From an uncultured Methanosarcinales archaeon (GTDB lineage Archaea > Halobacteriota > Methanosarcinia > Methanotrichales > Methanotrichaceae): a stretch of DNA of 64,000 nt. Both the position numbers and the translations under genes were made by a program. The DNA lies in contig CAWJKV010000005.1 of assembly GCA_963843555.1 (NCBI GenBank), positions 64,001 through 128,000 on the forward strand. Direction: 5' to 3'. Of this stretch, positions 51,968-60,657 are shown piece by piece (positions within the stretch are counted from its first letter, which is position 1; each line of letters starts with the position of its first letter). Under the pieces are notes generated by a model, which saw nothing but the letters and a program-made list of their open reading frames with translations, was not told the origin of the DNA and ran no database searches.

Positions 51968-52696
51968 ATGAGGAAACTAATAGCTGTTTTGGTTATTATC
52001 GCCATGGCCGTAGTAGGCATGGCCGGTGCAGCCAACTATATGTACGAAAAGGCATCGGTCAAGGGCGTTGGATACAAGAACGTAGAGATGATCGTTTCAA
52101 CCCAGACTGGTTTTGCAGGCCAGAAGCTGGTAGAGAAAGAGTCCGGATCCGGTAACGTAATCACCGAGAGGACTGAGCTCGAAGCCGAGAGGCAGCTTGG
52201 CAAGAATGGTCTCGTCCTAGCCGATTGCCTGTACCCAACCGGTGGCTGCGCCATGGACTACATCAACTTCACCAAGGAAGCTGAGTTCGAGTACATGCCC
52301 GTATCTTACCAGACCGGAACCTACGACCAGAAGTGGGTCGAGAAACTCTGCGTCCAGAACTACAGGATCGGCGCTGTGCTGACTGAGATGTACACCCATG
52401 CTGAGCACCTGCAGAAGACCACTGAGGTCAAGACCAGGGGCTACGCCAACAACTGCGTAACAAACTGCTGCACAGGTGTACTCGAGGCTAACCTCAACAG
52501 CAATGTAATCGGCGTTGCTCACATCGGATGGATCTCCAGGGATCCCATGGCTGACAACCAGCTCAAGGGTCGCCATGCCGAGTACGGCAGATCCGTCGAG
52601 GACCTGACTGGTGTCTTCTCCATCGAGAAGTTCATCCAGCTCTGGGGCAACTCCACATGCGGCGCAATCAGCGTTGACTGGCTGCCCTGCGTGTAA
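51968..52696 (+). CDS. Secreted Cys-rich hypothetical protein, paralog 1
   Basis: RBS AAGGAGGT, signal peptide ending AGA, 8 Cys, ends DWLPCV. Confidence 0.9.
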   Translation: MRKLIAVLVIIAMAVVGMAGAANYMYEKASVKGVGYKNVEMIVSTQTGFAGQKLVEKESGSGNVITERTELEAERQLGKNGLVLADCLYPTGGCAMDYINFTKEAEFEYMPVSYQTGTYDQKWVEKLCVQNYRIGAVLTEMYTHAEHLQKTTEVKTRGYANNCVTNCCTGVLEANLNSNVIGVAHIGWISRDPMADNQLKGRHAEYGRSVEDLTGVFSIEKFIQLWGNSTCGAISVDWLPCV

Positions 52697-52722
52697 ATAG
52701 ATAAAACTGAATCGTCAGATTT

Positions 52723-52770
52723 GGCTCCGGGCTTGATTGCCCGGAGTTCATATTATATTTCGCGTTTTTA
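52723..52770 (+). terminator. Hairpin plus T-rich tract, duplicated after paralog 2
   Basis: CTCCGGGC-ttgatt-GCCCGGAG; near-identical copy at ~54021-54042. Confidence 0.6.
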
Positions 52771-53257
52771 TTGAAGTAGTAACCTTGCATCGAACGTTCT
52801 TTTTGCGAAAATATCGTCACCCAGATGGGGCGCCGATATATTAAGTGCATTATTCTGGATAACATGTCCCTAGAACCATGCGACCTCAGGTGAGTTTCGC
52901 CCTGCCCGGAGGTGAAAACAGGCATGTCGTGCGTGAATATTAGATGATCAAATTACAGAATTCATGCTCGATAGGTTTATATGTCAGTAATCTAATGTGG
53001 AAGGTTGTGCCTGAAGAACATTTTCAAATGCCCGATGAAAATCATGGGACCAGGCGCCTCACGCCGGATAGGATAGCACTTGACGCTTTCGGCAGATGTA
53101 TCAAAACTGAGCCGAACCAAGCGGTTTCACTCTTCTGGTGGAACGATCCCGGATCTTTGATCTGGGGCATATCTGATCCAATCGGGGTGATGTACTGAAG
53201 GATCATTCGTTGCTGTCAAGCAGCATTCGATCCTCATGTAAAGGAGGTGGGAAAGAA

Positions 53258-53992
53258 ATGAGAAAACTAATAGCTGTTTTGGTTATTATCGCCATGGCCG
53301 TAGTAGGCATGGCCGGTGCAGCCAACTATATGTACGAAAAGGCATCGGTCAAGGGCGTTGGATACAAGAACGTAGAGATGATCATTTCCACACAGACTGG
53401 CTTTGCCGGCCAGAAGCTGGTAGAGAAAGAGTCCGGATCCGGTAACGTGATCACCGAGAGGACTGAGATCGAAGCCGAGAGGCAGCTCGGCAGAGACGGC
53501 CTCGTTCTTGCTGGCAATTGCATTTACCCAACCGGCAATGCTTGCGCCATGGACTACATCAACTTCACTAAGGAAGCTGAGTTCGAGTACATGCCCGTAT
53601 CTTACCAGACCGGAACCTACGACCAGAAGTGGGTCGAGAAACTCTGCGTCCAGAACTACAGGATCGGCGCTGTGCTGACTGAAATGTACACCCATGCTGA
53701 GCACCTGCAGAAGACCACTGAGGTCAAGACCAGGGGCTACGCCAATAACTGTGTAACAAACTGCTGCACAGGTGTACTCGAGGCTAACCTCAACAGCAAC
53801 GTAATCGGCGTTGCCCACATCGGATGGATCTCCAGGGACCCCATGGCTGACCCACAGCTCAAGGGCCGCCATGCCGAGTATGGCAGATCTGTCGAGGACC
53901 TGACTGGCGTCTTCTCCATCGAGAAGTTCATCCAGCTCTGGGGCAACTCCACATGCGGCGCAATCAGCGTTGACTGGCTGCCCTGCGTGTAA
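53258..53992 (+). CDS. Secreted Cys-rich hypothetical protein, paralog 2 (near-identical to paralog 1)
   Basis: Same RBS and signal peptide; differs mainly in one loop. Confidence 0.9.
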   Translation: MRKLIAVLVIIAMAVVGMAGAANYMYEKASVKGVGYKNVEMIISTQTGFAGQKLVEKESGSGNVITERTEIEAERQLGRDGLVLAGNCIYPTGNACAMDYINFTKEAEFEYMPVSYQTGTYDQKWVEKLCVQNYRIGAVLTEMYTHAEHLQKTTEVKTRGYANNCVTNCCTGVLEANLNSNVIGVAHIGWISRDPMADPQLKGRHAEYGRSVEDLTGVFSIEKFIQLWGNSTCGAISVDWLPCV

Positions 53993-54353
53993 ATAGACAA
54001 AACTGAAATCTCAAATCAGGCTCCGGGCTCGATTGCCCGGAGTTCATATTATATTTTTGACTTTATTATTATCTCAGAATCTATTTTAATCATTTCTGGA
54101 TTCAGTCTCAAATATGAGCGGTAGTAGTAATTCCAAAAGCACAATTGTGCTATTCTCTTCCAAGAAGCTCATCCGCATAGGCAGCTCCCCTGGCGCTAGC
54201 TGCCTTAAGTGTTGATTATGAACAACAGATAGATTTATATCAAATAAAAGCATCAGCTTATAATTGTAGCTCAAGTCTCGGCTTTACGGCCGAAAGGGAT
54301 CTACATCTAAAGGGATCAATAACTGTTACGTCAACATCGGGGGTGAATGTAGC

Positions 54354-55130
54354 ATGAAGGGAGTAGTAGTAGTAATTGCAATTGCCCTTATGGGGCTATG
54401 CGGCACTGTGGTGGCCACTCCGCCTTTAGTTCCGCCCGTACAGTATGAGCAATTCTGTGAAAACCAAAAAGTATCCGGAACAGGGATTATCGATGTCAGT
54501 AGCTCGATAATCGACAAAAAAATCGCTCTTGAATACTTCAGCACCATGAATGGTGACGGCGACCTCGAGCTCGATCAGGAGACCGCCTATTCGCAGAATG
54601 CTGACAAGCTCATGAGGAATATATCCACGGTCAACAATGGAAACAAGTCCAACCTGAACCTTGTCCAGGCTACCAAGATGACCTACAAAGGCGAAACGCC
54701 CTTGACCGGCGGAAAACTCATCAATTCCAAGGCCTTCTATGGAGGTATGGGCGCTAATGTGCAGGAGCTATTCTCGGTGAATGAGATGGAGCAGGATGAG
54801 ACCGCGTTCTTCTCCTCAACCACGCCATACAATCCACCAGGAATGACGCCCGAGAATCTCATTGGCGCGCTCAAGGATGCTGGTAGAGATACGGATGCAG
54901 TTGGCCAGCTGATGGGTAACAACCCGGCTCACCTGGTTGGAATCGAGACCAAGAACACCTTCAACGGCACATGGGGCACCGACGCAAGCTGGCACAAGAT
55001 ATTCTACAAGGATATCAAAGCTCACGAGATGTTCACAGGAACATTCGAAGCCGAGAAGACCATAAAGTTCCATGAGAATCCGGTACCTGAGACGGATTCA
55101 CAAGCACCTTGCGAAGGCATAGACTGCTAG
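54354..55130 (+). CDS. Secreted hypothetical protein, distant member of the same family
   Basis: Signal peptide; ENQKVSGTG..GDG at the N-terminus and EMFTGTFEAEKTI near the C-terminus; ends PCEGIDC. Confidence 0.85.
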   Translation: MKGVVVVIAIALMGLCGTVVATPPLVPPVQYEQFCENQKVSGTGIIDVSSSIIDKKIALEYFSTMNGDGDLELDQETAYSQNADKLMRNISTVNNGNKSNLNLVQATKMTYKGETPLTGGKLINSKAFYGGMGANVQELFSVNEMEQDETAFFSSTTPYNPPGMTPENLIGALKDAGRDTDAVGQLMGNNPAHLVGIETKNTFNGTWGTDASWHKIFYKDIKAHEMFTGTFEAEKTIKFHENPVPETDSQAPCEGIDC

Positions 55131-55183
55131 GCTGAAATAGCTCAGCAGTTTTTCTTTTTTTAGGGCTTTATTGGGGGATTAGC

Positions 55184-56401
55184 ATGAAAAGATGTCTGAT
55201 TACGTTAATGATAATATTTGTTCTAACAGCATGCCAGGCAATGGCCACTGTTGAGGACCCGGCCGAAGAAATAGATGATGTATCGGGCAATACCTGTGCT
55301 GGCAACACCTGTGCTGGACCCTCCACACCATCTCTGCCGACATATTTGCCCAGTCCATGTTCCGGGGATTCGGGTTCACTTTCCGTGAGCGTAAGCCTTA
55401 CTGGACCCGAATCAGAGCCTGATAAATCATACACGACCCAGGGCAAACCACTGAGTTTCATAGTCACCATAAGCAACAATGGCAAAACAGAGGCCGATGC
55501 TGAGGTGAATGTCAAGCCAGAGGGTTCGCCATTGGAATGGTTCAGCTGGACGACAACATCCATAAAGATCCCGGCGGGAGCCTCTCGATCCCAGAACCTG
55601 GAAGTCCAGCCGGATATGAATGCAGTAGCTGGAGTGTACAAGTTTTCCGTCCAGGCCTCTGCCAAATGCCGCAACTCGGCTGAATGTCTGGCCCAATTCA
55701 AGGTGCAGGCATTCGACTATGCATCAGAGACCGCCATCAGTGGTTCCGGTCAGTTCCAGATCAATAAGGATCTTCGCTCGATGAACTCAGGGATAAAGTC
55801 CACCAAAAATGTGATATTCAGCGGCACTGTGGATGCTATTGTAAAGAATGAATACCTGGTGGACGAGGCAAAGGGCAAAAATGCCAACTTCCAGGAACAG
55901 GACGCCGTTGACAACTACAACGCCGTTGCCAGTGGAGATGCACTTGTGGGAACAGAGAGCTTCAAGAGCTCCGCGGTCTTCGGAGGAGTGGGTGCTAAAG
56001 TAAGGGAGAGCTACGATGTGCAGCAGATGGAATTCAAGAGCCAGGACTTCACACTTCATCAGACTGGATCCTTAAAGAAGTCCGCGGAGTTCCAGACGGC
56101 GAACAACTTCACAGGATACTATCTGATAGACGCCAAGCAGACAATTCCCGGCCAGAAGAGCCTGAAAGAGCTTGAGGAGTATTTCGGCTCCTTTGAGATC
56201 AATAGGAGAATACTCTTCCGGAACGATGCCGAATCCACGACTCCATGCCAGGAGGGAGATTGCCTGAAAACACCTGGTGTAAAAAGCCCAAGCAGTCCTG
56301 CCTTCACCAGTCCCTGTTTGAGCGGCTCATGCAATGACTTCGTAAATAGGCTGAATACTTTCGACCAAGCCACCAGTATGAGCCCTTTCTTTTTTTCCTG
56401 A
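55184..56401 (+). CDS. Secreted protein: Ig-like domain plus family domain, Cys-rich ends
   Basis: Signal peptide, VTISNNG..IPAGAS..AGVYKFSVQA Ig-like segment; ETAISGSG and EYFGSFEINRRI motifs. Confidence 0.85.
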   Translation: MKRCLITLMIIFVLTACQAMATVEDPAEEIDDVSGNTCAGNTCAGPSTPSLPTYLPSPCSGDSGSLSVSVSLTGPESEPDKSYTTQGKPLSFIVTISNNGKTEADAEVNVKPEGSPLEWFSWTTTSIKIPAGASRSQNLEVQPDMNAVAGVYKFSVQASAKCRNSAECLAQFKVQAFDYASETAISGSGQFQINKDLRSMNSGIKSTKNVIFSGTVDAIVKNEYLVDEAKGKNANFQEQDAVDNYNAVASGDALVGTESFKSSAVFGGVGAKVRESYDVQQMEFKSQDFTLHQTGSLKKSAEFQTANNFTGYYLIDAKQTIPGQKSLKELEEYFGSFEINRRILFRNDAESTTPCQEGDCLKTPGVKSPSSPAFTSPCLSGSCNDFVNRLNTFDQATSMSPFFFS

Positions 56402-56613
56402 ATTACGCACTATTCTTTCTATTTGAAAGTAAATCCACAATATAAATGGCAGCCAAAACCTTGAAATAGACTCCAGAGAACTAGATAACGGGTGTTAGGG
56501 TTCATCAGGAGAGTAATGGCCGTACATAAAGGTTACCGGCCCTGATTATTGTCAGAGGCCAAAGCGACCCCATAAATTTCCGGGGGCATCCGGCCAAAAG
56601 GAGGTAGTGTGGA

Positions 56614-57324
56614 TTGAAGAGAAAATTGATCGTTCTTGCGATTATCGCCATAGCTCTGGTGGGCATGGCGGGGGCTGCCAATTACATGTACGAGAAATCG
56701 TCTGTAAAAGGAGTAGGTTATCGGAGCCTGGAGATGGTTATCTCCACACAAAACGGCTTCAATGGACAGAAGCTGGTGGAGAAGCAGTCCGGTTCGGGAA
56801 ATGTAATTACTTCCAGGATAGAACTGGAAGCTGAGAGGCAGCCAACGAATCTGGATTGTCCCTGGCCGACCGGCAGCACTCCCATGGACTACATAAACTT
56901 CACCTCGGAACAGGAGCTGGAGTATATGCCCGTCTCATATCAGACCGGCACCTATGATCAGAAATGGGTGGACAAGCTCTGTGTGCAGAACTACAAGATC
57001 GGCGCCGTTCTGACTGAGATGTACACTCATGCTGAGCACCTGCAGAAGACCACCGAGGTCAAGACGAGAGGATACAATGGTCCCGTGACGAACTGCTGCA
57101 CAGGTGTTCTCGAGGCTAACCTCAACAGCAACGTAATCGGCGTGGCCCACATTGGATGGATCTCCCGGGACCCCACCGGCGACCCACAGCTGAAAGGCCG
57201 CCATGCTGAATATGGCCGCAGTGTCGAAGACCTCACCGGTGTCTTCTCCATTGAGAAGTTCATCCAGCTCTGGGGCAACTCCACCTGTGGAGCCGTCAGC
57301 GTTGATTGGCTGCCCTGTGTGTAA
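56614..57324 (+). CDS. Secreted Cys-rich hypothetical protein, paralog 3
   Basis: TTG start after GGAGGT; C-terminal half nearly identical to paralogs 1 and 2; 6 Cys. Confidence 0.88.
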   Translation: MKRKLIVLAIIAIALVGMAGAANYMYEKSSVKGVGYRSLEMVISTQNGFNGQKLVEKQSGSGNVITSRIELEAERQPTNLDCPWPTGSTPMDYINFTSEQELEYMPVSYQTGTYDQKWVDKLCVQNYKIGAVLTEMYTHAEHLQKTTEVKTRGYNGPVTNCCTGVLEANLNSNVIGVAHIGWISRDPTGDPQLKGRHAEYGRSVEDLTGVFSIEKFIQLWGNSTCGAVSVDWLPCV

Positions 57325-58489: not shown

Positions 58490-59242
58490 ATGAAAAGACT
58501 GACTGCCTTTGTCTCAGGAACGGTCCAGAAGACCGGCTACCGTGCAAAGGTAGTAAATCTGGCGAATTTTCTGGGACTTATGGGATTTGTGCAGAACCTT
58601 CCCGACGGCAGAGTGAAGGTTGTGGCGGAAGGTGATGATTCTATCCTAGAGCGTTTCCTCAATGATTTAAGGATCAAAGATCCTCTGATCGATGTGCAGG
58701 ACATCGAAAGTAATTACACTTCTGCCAGGGGTGACTTCATAAGATTTGAAAAGATGGTCGCCAATGGTGAAACGGATCAACGCCTGGACAAAGCAGCAGA
58801 ACTGCTCGGTGATCTAATCGTTGTCAACAAGCAGATTGTGGCCCAATTAATAATAAATAATGAGGAGACCAAGGGCGTCCGGGAAGAGGTCAGAGGCTCT
58901 CGCGAAGACATCCGAGCGGTTCATGAAGAAGTTAAAGGTGTTCGAGAAGAGGTCAGAGGCTCTCGCGAAGACATCCGAGCGGTTCATGAAGAGGTTAAAG
59001 GTGTTCGAGAAGAGATCAAAGGCTCTCGCGAAGATACAAACAAAGTCCGTGAATCCATCCAGGATGCTAGCCAGGAGATCACTTCCTCCTGTGAGATAAT
59101 CGCAGAGAAGATAGATGATGCCAGAGAAGAGATTGCAGATAGTGTTAAAGAGCTTCATTCTGATTTAAAAGATGATCTAAAAGAGAGATTGGTCCGAATG
59201 GAGGCAGATGTCTCGCAGATAAAAGCCAGGATCGGCCTGTAA
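58490..59242 (+). CDS. Acylphosphatase with long C-terminal coiled-coil
   Basis: VSGTVQKTGYR, GFVQNLPDGRVKVVAEG, then a heptad-rich tail. Confidence 0.85.
   Translation: MKRLTAFVSGTVQKTGYRAKVVNLANFLGLMGFVQNLPDGRVKVVAEGDDSILERFLNDLRIKDPLIDVQDIESNYTSARGDFIRFEKMVANGETDQRLDKAAELLGDLIVVNKQIVAQLIINNEETKGVREEVRGSREDIRAVHEEVKGVREEVRGSREDIRAVHEEVKGVREEIKGSREDTNKVRESIQDASQEITSSCEIIAEKIDDAREEIADSVKELHSDLKDDLKERLVRMEADVSQIKARIGL
58871..59034 (+). repeat. 63-bp tandem repeat (~2.6 copies; 21 aa = 3 heptads)
   Basis: KGVREEVRGSREDIRAVHEEV repeated; GAAGAGGTCAGAGGCTCTCGCGAAGACATCCGAGCGGTTCATGAAGA is duplicated exactly. Confidence 0.9.
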
Positions 59243-59536
59243 AGAAATCCACAAATCAACCCCCCCATTTCCTTCTATTCTGTGCAGTCCTAATTCCCAA
59301 AAAAATCAAGGTTATATAAAATATAAAACAATAATGAGAACGATGCGGGGAGAGTGAAGTCGAGGCCCTGTGCAGAATATTGCGCTCTCCAACACATCCG
59401 TCTTCGGACATGATTCCTGCAGAATCTCCAATCGTTTCAGCATCCGCCCCGCCGCCATGCACCTCTCCGCCCAGGAGACATCGACTGCCATCTACCCCCG
59501 GTCCAAAACGTCGATCTGAATCATAACTTCTACCAG

Positions 59537-59996
59537 AGCTCGACTTTCAACCGCAAACTACAAGTATCCATAACGACTAAATAGGTAGTTTGCCGCTTCA
59601 TGCAAAGGGCGGCGGGCGTGTCGTGGGCCTAACGTATGCCGATAATGCTCTGTTCGGCAAGGCTGATTCAATCGCTGTCCCTCCGAGGGGCAGTTTGCGG
59701 TCGCTTATAAGATCAGATCGCTTCCTTGTTCCAGGAGATGCATGCCGTCGTGGTACTGCATTCGGCTACGAGCCTGTGAGACTTGAACTTCGGCAGCCAA
59801 AAAAAAGTTGCGCACGGTAACAGGTGCAGCAATCTGCCGAAAGGATCTCGCGCTAATACACGACCGGGGCATGAAGCGGCACAAAGCCAAAGGCGAGAGG
59901 CGAGCATGAGGCCCAGTGAGTTCGGGTTCCCGTGAAACGGACGCTGTGTCAAATTCCAGCGCTGTGTCGCCTCCAAGCCCAGATTAAAGTCGAGCT
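59537..59996 (+). ncRNA. Candidate large structured non-coding RNA (unassigned)
   Basis: Helices 59537-47/59986-96 (11 bp), 59591-603/59869-81 (13 bp), 59620-25/59859-64, 59897-903/59967-73 plus local hairpins; no credible ORF; strand tentative. Confidence 0.55.
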
Positions 59997-60657
59997 TCGG
60001 GCAGGCCAGGTCATCACTTCTGTGATTGGCTCCTCCTAAAAGGGCGCTGTGGATTTCGGCGCTGGCCCGCCCGGGAATCGATTATGCAGTTTTTCTATTC
60101 TTCCCTCCCAGATGGTGGTTTTATACTCTTGATTCTTCCTAATCGAAAGCCTTAAATATCGGCAATCGACGTATAGTATATTGGCGAAAGTCAATGGCTA
60201 ATTTTCTCCCTCCTACACCCAGAAGACTTTTGCCTCCCTCCTTCTTATGCATAAATGCTTTCAGGTGATGCACTATTACTCAGGAGACAAAAAATTATTA
60301 ATTTCTATCCCGTCTTGAAATCGGAATCCTTTACCTTCAGTCCTCCTCTTTCAGCCTGCAGGTCGCAGGGATCGCCTCGTGCCTTCATCACCTCTACTTT
60401 TCGTCCATCCAATTCAGTCTCGGCTGAGTCTTCTGATCTTTTTTCAGTCAATTCATTCACCTCAATCAGAAAGGAAATTCGCACCTGATGATGATTATTA
60501 AGGAATCCATATTGATAAAGTATTGCCTTAACAAGACAAATTTATTTAAGATTATCCAGAAAGCCAGCGAGACAGATTATGACCCGTGAGCACGTCTTTC
60601 ATTACAGAATCAGCGGCTTATGTGGACTGATAGAGATGTTGCCTGTCACCATAATGG

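Follow-up and report, generated by a model that had tools for sequence, protein, structure and literature searches.

The large RNA gene, its ends and its transcript

The window (the whole 64,000-nt stretch of archaeal DNA that was analysed) contains a 1415-nt intergenic gap at 59243-60657, between an acylphosphatase-domain gene and a histidine kinase gene. A sequence-only reading had described this gap of about 1.4 kb and placed in it a multi-domain, functional and uncatalogued large archaeal ncRNA, a proposal that is supported by the lack of an Rfam match, by covariation and by cover in RNA libraries. The features recognised at the locus, together with related genes elsewhere, are listed in Table 1. 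The acylphosphatase-domain ORF carries a 21/63-nt tandem repeat (window 58860-59050) that codes for a coiled-coil-like tail. At 51968-57324 the window also holds three near-identical secreted cysteine-rich paralogs of ~240 aa with two other secreted-looking ORFs between them; the one paralog scanned had no Pfam match.

Table 1 Features of the large RNA locus (window coordinates) and genes mentioned in the text from other records
Feature	Position	Strand	Description and evidence
Decayed remnant of the 57-aa small basic protein gene	59426..59524	-	tblastn 52% identity over 33 aa, E 2e-5, stop inside the match
5' arm of the proposed outer helix	59537..59547	+	Outside the RNA; chance complementarity
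Conserved dedicated promoter	59548..59591	+	BRE-like ACCG(C/A)AAA, non-canonical TATA-like box, imperfect palindrome reaching the RNA start
Large structured ncRNA, type A 5' domain	59592..60082	+	491 nt, 57% G+C; homologs, covariation, RNA-library cover
Domain 1	59592..59880	+	Closed by P1 (59592-603/59869-80); holds P2 (59620-25/59859-64)
Domain 1 hairpin	59808-59832	+	K-U-R-A-N-N hexaloop; hexaloop counts in homologs
Domain 2, four-way junction	59899..59971	+	Closing stem, arm a (59910-14/59924-28), arm b, arm c
Domain 3, second copy of the domain 2 junction module	59989..60082	+	Closing stem formed by GUCGAG and the 3' end
U-rich tract, likely archaeal terminator	60083..60110	+	Sequence; T-rich in homologs; RNA-library cover dies out here
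RNA-C promoter	60143..60182	+	Canonical-looking BRE/TATA; conserved in 8 source-genome copies
RNA-C, second small RNA	60183..60245	+	Separate multicopy gene; 8 source-genome copies at E<0.01
57-aa protein, example gene	L072:1241-1414	-	
54-aa protein gene	L220:4238-4399	+	
54-aa protein gene	G000 C5:226091-226252		
54-aa protein gene	G000 C6:71015-71176		

The helices named in the sequence-only reading are all present in the DNA (59537-47/59986-96, 59591-603/59869-81, 59620-25/59859-64 and 59897-903/59967-73), and the inner ones proved to be part of the RNA. The outermost, an 11-bp helix thought to enclose two domains, did not hold up. The conserved block and the transcribed interval both begin downstream of its 5' arm, and a complementary run of at least 11 occurs in just 2 of 78 homologs (the source copy and one other; mode 5). 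In 72 of these 78 homologs the GTCGAG hexamer pairs instead with the 3' end of the RNA (5-6 of 6 positions). Since the GUCGAG segment pairs with the 3' end and the outer helix is unconserved, we set the RNA at 59592-60082. The proposed multi-domain organisation stands, with three domains in place of two and with an end near 60082 in place of 60070.

Comparison of homologs showed a sharp onset of sequence conservation near 59549, and the 44-nt promoter block is highly conserved across 82 elements (column conservation). At a loose threshold the block was found upstream of 114 of 125 independently fetched copies, and the 11 misses look 5'-truncated. We take its BRE and TATA elements as such from their resemblance to archaeal promoters. 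A TATA-like box that had been suggested near 59311 is not in the conserved block and sits 280 nt before the transcribed interval begins; the promoter is instead placed at 59548-59591. In the source genome the full motif scores only at large-RNA genes (4 real matches vs 0 shuffled), and a motif scan of that genome gave no protein-coding regulon marked by it. A bacterial promoter and terminator scan of the locus was uninformative. Downstream, the U-rich tract is likely to be the terminator of the large RNA. Folding, G-U tolerance, the direction of the promoter and the downstream U-tract all point to the plus strand as the transcribed one. No reading frame is maintained within the RNA: of 463 net indels, 417 have lengths that three does not divide.

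Part of the stretch is contained in 20 sequencing runs from nine studies, 16 of them recorded as RNA. In all four runs that were mapped (four studies; wetland and sediment samples), metatranscriptome contigs gave deep cover confined to bins within 59571-60119. Summed contig depth peaked at 1.4 million and 1.1 million in two runs, these being contigs that come mostly from relatives and carry no strand, true ends or level relative to rRNA. The bin 59510-59570, which holds the first half of the conserved promoter, had zero RNA-library cover; as DNA carry-over should cover the conserved promoter too, this favours a discrete transcript. Zero cover over the flanking genes carries no weight, because the runs mostly contain relatives with other flanks. 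One 433-nt RNA-library contig starts at 59592 (8 differences, 2 gaps). Depth over domain 3 was far under the peak in three runs, and in the fourth there was none past ~60022. No joint of the 3' end to the 5' end, the sign of a circle, was listed in the four runs, although contigs cannot exclude a circle.

Fold and covariation of the three domains

The plus strand of 59530-60075 folds better than its shuffled controls (z -4.46, 0 of 100 shuffles as good), the outcome expected from the sequence-only reading, and the minus strand gives a weaker fold (z -2.32). Ten single members of the family, tested with 12 shuffles each, ranged from z -0.9 to -4.9 and were weaker than -2 in 4 of 10. With energies this uneven, the structural case rests on covariation.

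Covariation supports a large RNA of three side-by-side domains. Comparison with relatives, proposed earlier as a check, found the family by BLAST and covariance search and showed which of the inner helices are preserved. In domain 1, homologs confirmed the 13-bp P1 helix, and the nested GTCGTG/CACGAC helix shows a double change at one pair in 8 of 31 sequences; a proposed hairpin TGCCGA..TCGGCA was lost, as its CCGA pairs further downstream in homologs. Across the 31 type A sequences, the 60 modelled pairs of domain 1 were paired in 95.9% of cells and 15 showed double changes, with 0 of 500 shuffles as high. The type B 5' domain, in its own alignment, had 19 of 88 pairs doubly changed.

Domain 2 is a four-way junction. 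Its arm b has 3 bp and an 8-nt N-G-U-R-A-R-A-N loop (G-U-R-A-R-A in 45 of 60 sequences), and arm c ends in a G-C-closed loop of seven nt at 59949-59955. This loop carries the sequence signature of a T-loop, in which U54, A58 and U60 form the consensus pattern. Among 52 seven-nt loops from 62 sequences, 50 have A at the 58-like place, 46 a pyrimidine at 54 (39 U, 7 C) and 47 U at 60. Domain 3 repeats the arrangement, and the module common to both consists of CA, a GGYC/GGYY arm, a CC-N8-GG arm, a purine, a CRCUG/CRGYG arm and C-UG; domains 2 and 3 are a duplicated four-way junction.

In a MAFFT alignment of 62 sequences, the 46 pairs of domains 2 and 3 were paired in 92.4% of cells and 26 were doubly changed (0 of 500 shuffles), with shuffle controls that, for all our covariation counts, ignore kinship, and with a tested structure derived from the source-genome copy and RNAalifold. 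Slid controls for this alignment gave only 28-48% pairing. In a mostly independent, model-fitted set of 94 sequences, 31 of the 46 pairs were doubly changed. Five of the top six mutual-information pairs are pairs of the model, and arm b gains one pair. The core of the GAGGCGA/TCGCCTC helix, which had been proposed to close the second domain, is the top mutual-information pair of all (z 13); the proposal holds for this core, and one part of the closing stem is only 64-66% paired across the two alignments. No convincing non-nested pair, of the pseudoknot or kissing kind, was found among the top 45 mutual-information pairs of domains 2 and 3 (79 sequences, effective number 39).

Three further readings of the fold were set aside. 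A switch is not supported: its 13-bp pairing of the type A 5' region with the 3' end reaches 96.5%, and shuffled controls do as well. Two features picked out by eye, a type A mini-ORF of four codons and a likeness to group II domain V, use bases that lie within covarying helices, and type B does not have them.

The T-loop-like arm raises the idea that the RNA is a tRNA-like decoy or a binder of tRNA or ribosomes, with domain 2 as a part-tRNA mimic or T-loop platform. In this role it would bind the translation machinery or soak up enzymes that act on tRNA, such as toxin nucleases or synthetases. Domain 2 resembles the tRNA T-arm and the tRNA-like parts of the bacterial Y RNA YrlA and of tmRNA in having a five-bp arm with a G-C-closed seven-nt loop and U54/A58/U60-like positions within a four-way junction. 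It differs from these tRNA-like domains in the order and sizes of its arms and in having no anticodon arm or CCA end, and neither ARAGORN nor Rfam calls a tRNA in it. The arm c consensus and the second G-U-R-A-R-A loop in arm b speak for such a role, as do the very high apparent abundance of the RNA and the toxin-like ORFs beside a few copies. Arms b and c, however, abut and probably stack end to end, so that their loops would point apart. Passages of 10.1101/2024.12.08.627333 also place T-loops in unrelated compact RNAs such as raiA. Overall, we regard a tRNA-directed role as unlikely.

The size of the RNA, the complexity of its junctions and some near-invariant unpaired bases would suit a new ribozyme or catalytic RNP acting on some substrate, and large complex bacterial ncRNAs are often catalytic according to passages of PMC5737381. 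Against this, few columns are invariant (4 of 336 across types), domain 1 can be exchanged, entire genera have no match, no Rfam ribozyme or intron model matches, and the abundance suggests stoichiometric action. A catalytic RNA is very unlikely in our view.

Distribution, copy types and neighbouring genes

The RNA was called an orphan in the sequence-only reading; it is instead one of eight model matches in the source genome (six near full length with promoter and two partial) and belongs to a gene family found across the archaeal family. The other source-genome copies are ~71-87% identical to the 59592-60082 copy over the aligned parts. With this copy, BLAST gave further matches in the source genome and matches in 24 of 24 genus relatives and 0 of 16 other genomes of the class; a second query was positive in 59 of 59 genomes of the genus. 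Searching with a covariance model built on the 3' part gave matches in 84 of 105 genomes of the Methanotrichaceae and their order (83 of 104 besides the source), spread over 11 of 16 genera at 1-11 per genome; of 76 genomes from four other families of the class, 0 had one. Two BLAST-positive genus genomes were missed by this first model, so its negatives mean 'not found'. Five family genomes that were negative with the first model gave no convincing match with a second model either, one of them holding a possibly decayed remnant (E 0.008). The second model gave three weak partial matches (E 0.003-0.007) in 150 other genomes of the phylum, about the chance expectation at the cut-off, and these were taken as noise. 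An exact 26-nt pattern occurred at 64 loci among 185,579 species genomes: 56 under titles that name Methanothrix, Methanosaeta or Methanotrichaceae, 6 under uncultured Methanosarcinales and 2 under uncultured archaeon. There were 0 matches in collections of 50,697 phage and 72,556 plasmid records. By these searches the family appears to be restricted to the Methanotrichaceae and uncatalogued. Taken together, we are almost certain that the large RNA is a real, expressed and structured ncRNA gene family.

Simple motif rules sort the 82 full elements by their 5' part into type A with 38 members (median 494 nt), type B with 34 (461 nt), type C with 8 (326 nt) and type D with 2 (450 nt). The family ranges from 325 to 520 nt, type C at ~325 nt being a natural minimal form. 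The types are common to several genera and were defined from the 5' domain before the tree of the 3' part was built. In that tree, built from 62 rows of the last 205 nt, strong branches force at least 5 changes for A and likewise for B, and an A copy and a B copy from one genome come out as sisters (100/99). Type A as a single clade is rejected (p-AU 0.0004; 82 rows, 38 vs 44, last 205 nt). Our reading is recombination, which would either keep the 3' chassis uniform among copies or exchange the 5' domain.

Truncated (5'), deleted and interrupted forms are common among the copies. One copy (L104, near 1620-1690) is interrupted by what we take, by resemblance, to be an IS200/IS605 right end. At five loci (L129, L132, L135, L138 and L139) an intact small-protein gene is accompanied by the promoter and no more than the opening 40-100 nt of the RNA; these are either decayed copies or short functional forms. 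Type C copies (L092-L094, L097 and L098) carry an extra conserved segment of ~45 nt upstream of the promoter that is absent in A and B.

This copy history could also be that of a selfish non-autonomous mobile element, MITE- or SINE-like, that folds and is transcribed for the sake of its own spread alone. Flanks differ at each copy, copies are truncated or interrupted, integrase fragments adjoin a few, and two viral records carry the large RNA. Among 150 matches listed from five relatives there was no syntenic empty site at which a target duplication might show. Terminal inverted repeats are the mark of a MITE or non-autonomous IS, but none of the 25 longest listed joins the ends of the element, and the co-duplicated flanks vary in length. 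The ~71-87% identity of copies within one genome, the spread of types across genera and the RNA-like covariation with its G-U tolerance also speak against an element of this kind. An RNA intermediate is disfavoured in that copies keep the promoter, which is not itself transcribed. We hold a purely selfish origin to be highly improbable.

Among the flanking ORF clusters of 80 loci, no neighbour is obligatory. The recurrent ones are DUF1699 (15 loci), the 57-aa basic protein (~13), an unnamed 128-aa ORF (9) and MC1 (6). tRNA genes are not enriched, with a tRNA within 6 of the 80 loci vs a 5% background. DUF1699 was rejected as a specific partner, as it is present in all 105 genomes, including those in which no RNA was found; it occurs in 1 to 20 copies per genome across these 105 genomes of the order, and a full-text search found no relevant paper on it.

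The viral record G313 (loci L220 and L221) is a 25-kb provirus-like sequence with a terminase in two ORFs, a portal, a protease and a 197-aa integrase. Its large RNA lies directly downstream of the integrase, with RNA-C, MC1, DUF1699 and a TPR protein alongside, and is either viral cargo or part of a host flank. An unnamed 54-aa protein, 83-100% identical across loci, is encoded just upstream of two source-genome RNA copies and of the viral-record copy.

The 57-aa basic protein belongs to a family of 334 homologs with a predicted fold of three helices (pLDDT 87). It had no Pfam, PHROG or Atlas match, and a structure search gave no significant match (best Z 6.3, rmsd 1.8, 56 aligned). Its gene is often divergent from the RNA promoter, back to back with it; at the locus studied here only a decayed remnant is left, and in other genomes the gene beside the RNA is intact. 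The protein was found in 45 of 105 genomes, every one of which has the large RNA; one genus has the RNA in 11 of its 16 genomes and the protein in 0. At 30 small-protein loci, the large RNA or a 5' stub of it lies within 1.5 kb at 20, MC1 at 9 and DUF1699 at 6.

RNA-C, the second small RNA of the gap, is the next feature after the large RNA in 52 of 127 copies. It consists of a 10-bp hairpin with a CU-rich, anti-Shine-Dalgarno-like loop and a tail, has no Rfam match, and showed trace cover in one of the four RNA-library runs.

The large RNA or RNA-C might act as an RNA antitoxin in an addiction module, neutralising the 57-aa protein and so keeping the cassette in the genome. The back-to-back cassette and the presence of the large RNA in every protein-bearing genome fit this idea, as does the predicted pairing of the RNA-C loop with the 25 nt upstream of seven small-protein genes (-12 to -28 kcal/mol vs a background median of -7.3). 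Just 2 of the 7 pairings, however, beat the 5th percentile of the background (-15.7 kcal/mol). The protein was not found in 39 genomes that have the RNA, and its gene is often decayed beside an intact RNA, as at 59426-59524; conversely, some protein loci retain no more than a stub of the large RNA. Nor is the protein a hydrophobic peptide, and it matches no known family or clear fold. We judge an antitoxin function to be distinctly unlikely.

The MC1 chromatin genes beside some copies, the abundance of the RNA and its dedicated, unusual promoter would also be in keeping with a regulator of the 6S kind, or one linked to chromatin, whose target when growth is slow would be RNA polymerase or the general transcription factors. 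6S RNA is a long rod with a central bubble, and the branched three-domain fold has no such rod. This strikes us as the least probable of the roles considered for the RNA.

Function of the large RNA and comparison with known systems

The sequence-only reading had offered three roles, namely ribozyme, scaffold and mobile-element guide RNA. The scaffold fits best. The guide RNA is disfavoured, since no nuclease, transposase or reverse transcriptase gene recurs beside the large RNA. By analogy, our preferred reading, to which we give somewhat less than even weight, is that the large RNA may be an abundant structural scaffold or sink, an archaeal counterpart of GOLLD, ROOL and OLE. Its high level, its dispensability in some genera and its lack of an invariant core argue for action by mass rather than catalysis. 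The dedicated promoter would yield a large amount of a compact three-domain RNA, in which domains 2 and 3 may dock through the T-loop and U-turn loops to give a rigid, long-lived particle, alone or as an oligomer. Domain 1 would set which partner is bound, and the RNA would hold or store a small basic protein or another cellular partner. First candidates for this partner would be the 57-aa protein, MC1 and DUF1699, which are encoded beside many copies. The copies would spread as DNA on accessory islands and occasionally proviruses, be homogenised by recombination and often decay. In an extension of the scaffold reading that we offer tentatively and consider rather doubtful, the constant two-junction chassis, with 5' domains swapped between paralogs, would give each cell a small repertoire of particles with different partners, abundant enough to rank with the dominant non-ribosomal RNAs of Methanothrix in wetlands and sediments.

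In wetlands, sediments and digesters, methane production from acetate is mainly the work of archaea of the Methanothrix type. If a large share of their transcription goes to the large RNA, a major part of their physiology is missing from annotation and is ignored in metatranscriptome counts. An abundant RNA restricted to one family could serve as an activity marker, and the 325-nt minimal form and the A/B/C/D domain swaps are ready-made constructs for work on structure and function. The family is an uncatalogued archaeal one of the ornate large RNA kind, which the passages of 10.1101/2024.12.08.627333 and PMC5737381 drawn on here describe from bacteria; because those described ornate RNAs are bacterial, an archaeal family directly tests how general a solution such RNA-only particles or large RNPs may be.

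Full-text searches of the literature found no description of the family, which may be contained as an unnamed cluster in supplements or in the COMPASS database. The string 'Methano' does not occur in the main text of the COMPASS preprint (10.64898/2026.10.21.760802). The 59592-60082 copy matched none of 4227 Rfam models at E up to 10 and none at the gathering thresholds, and ten further loci of types A-D gave just a tRNA and three weak unrelated matches (E 4-5). GOLLD, ROOL, OLE and raiA all have Rfam families.

Archaeal RNase P and SRP RNAs are alike in size class, in being independent genes and in abundance, but they are encoded elsewhere in the source genome. RF00373 (archaeal RNase P RNA) matches once, on another contig (E 1.9e-67), and RF01857 (archaeal SRP RNA) gives a full match on another contig (E 2e-47), neither matching at the locus; equally, the large-RNA family profile does not match the RNase P or SRP loci of the source genome. 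The earlier view that the element is not RNase P RNA, SRP RNA or a simple terminator holds. A tRNA or tmRNA was rejected, as ARAGORN finds only two tRNAs, 8 kb away, and the indels are frame-breaking. A group I or II intron or a derived ribozyme was rejected as well: there is no Rfam core match and the RNA begins directly at its promoter. HEARO or omega RNAs of IS200/IS605 elements (IscB, IsrB, TnpB) have no Rfam match here, and no nuclease or TnpA ORF recurs beside the 80 loci, whose flanking clusters were judged by sequence and in some cases scanned with Pfam.

OLE forms an RNP with defined partner proteins. The large RNA differs from it in having no obligatory neighbour and no Rfam match, and resembles it as a large stand-alone ncRNA that may bind small proteins. 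ROOL is reported to be as abundant as 16S rRNA, yet non-essential, in passages of 10.1101/2024.12.08.627333, and to have three pseudoknots in passages of PMC5737381. The large RNA is like ROOL in its similar size (ROOL ~580 nt), few invariant bases, absence of a fixed protein partner, very high abundance and apparent dispensability. It is unlike ROOL in having no Rfam match and no pseudoknot detected in domains 2 and 3, in being archaeal and in its dedicated promoter common to paralogs. GOLLD, in the passages of 10.1101/2024.12.08.627333 that concern it, has a conserved 3' part and a variable 5' part. GOLLD and the large RNA are both large multi-junction RNAs with a constant 3' and a variable 5' part, present in viral records as well as chromosomes; this layout is a trait common with GOLLD and no proof of homology. 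The large RNA departs from GOLLD in having no Rfam match, in its length (325-520 nt vs often >800), in being archaeal, restricted to one family, mostly chromosomal and multicopy, in showing no tRNA enrichment and in its duplicated junction module. By analogy, it would work most like GOLLD and ROOL as a member of neither.
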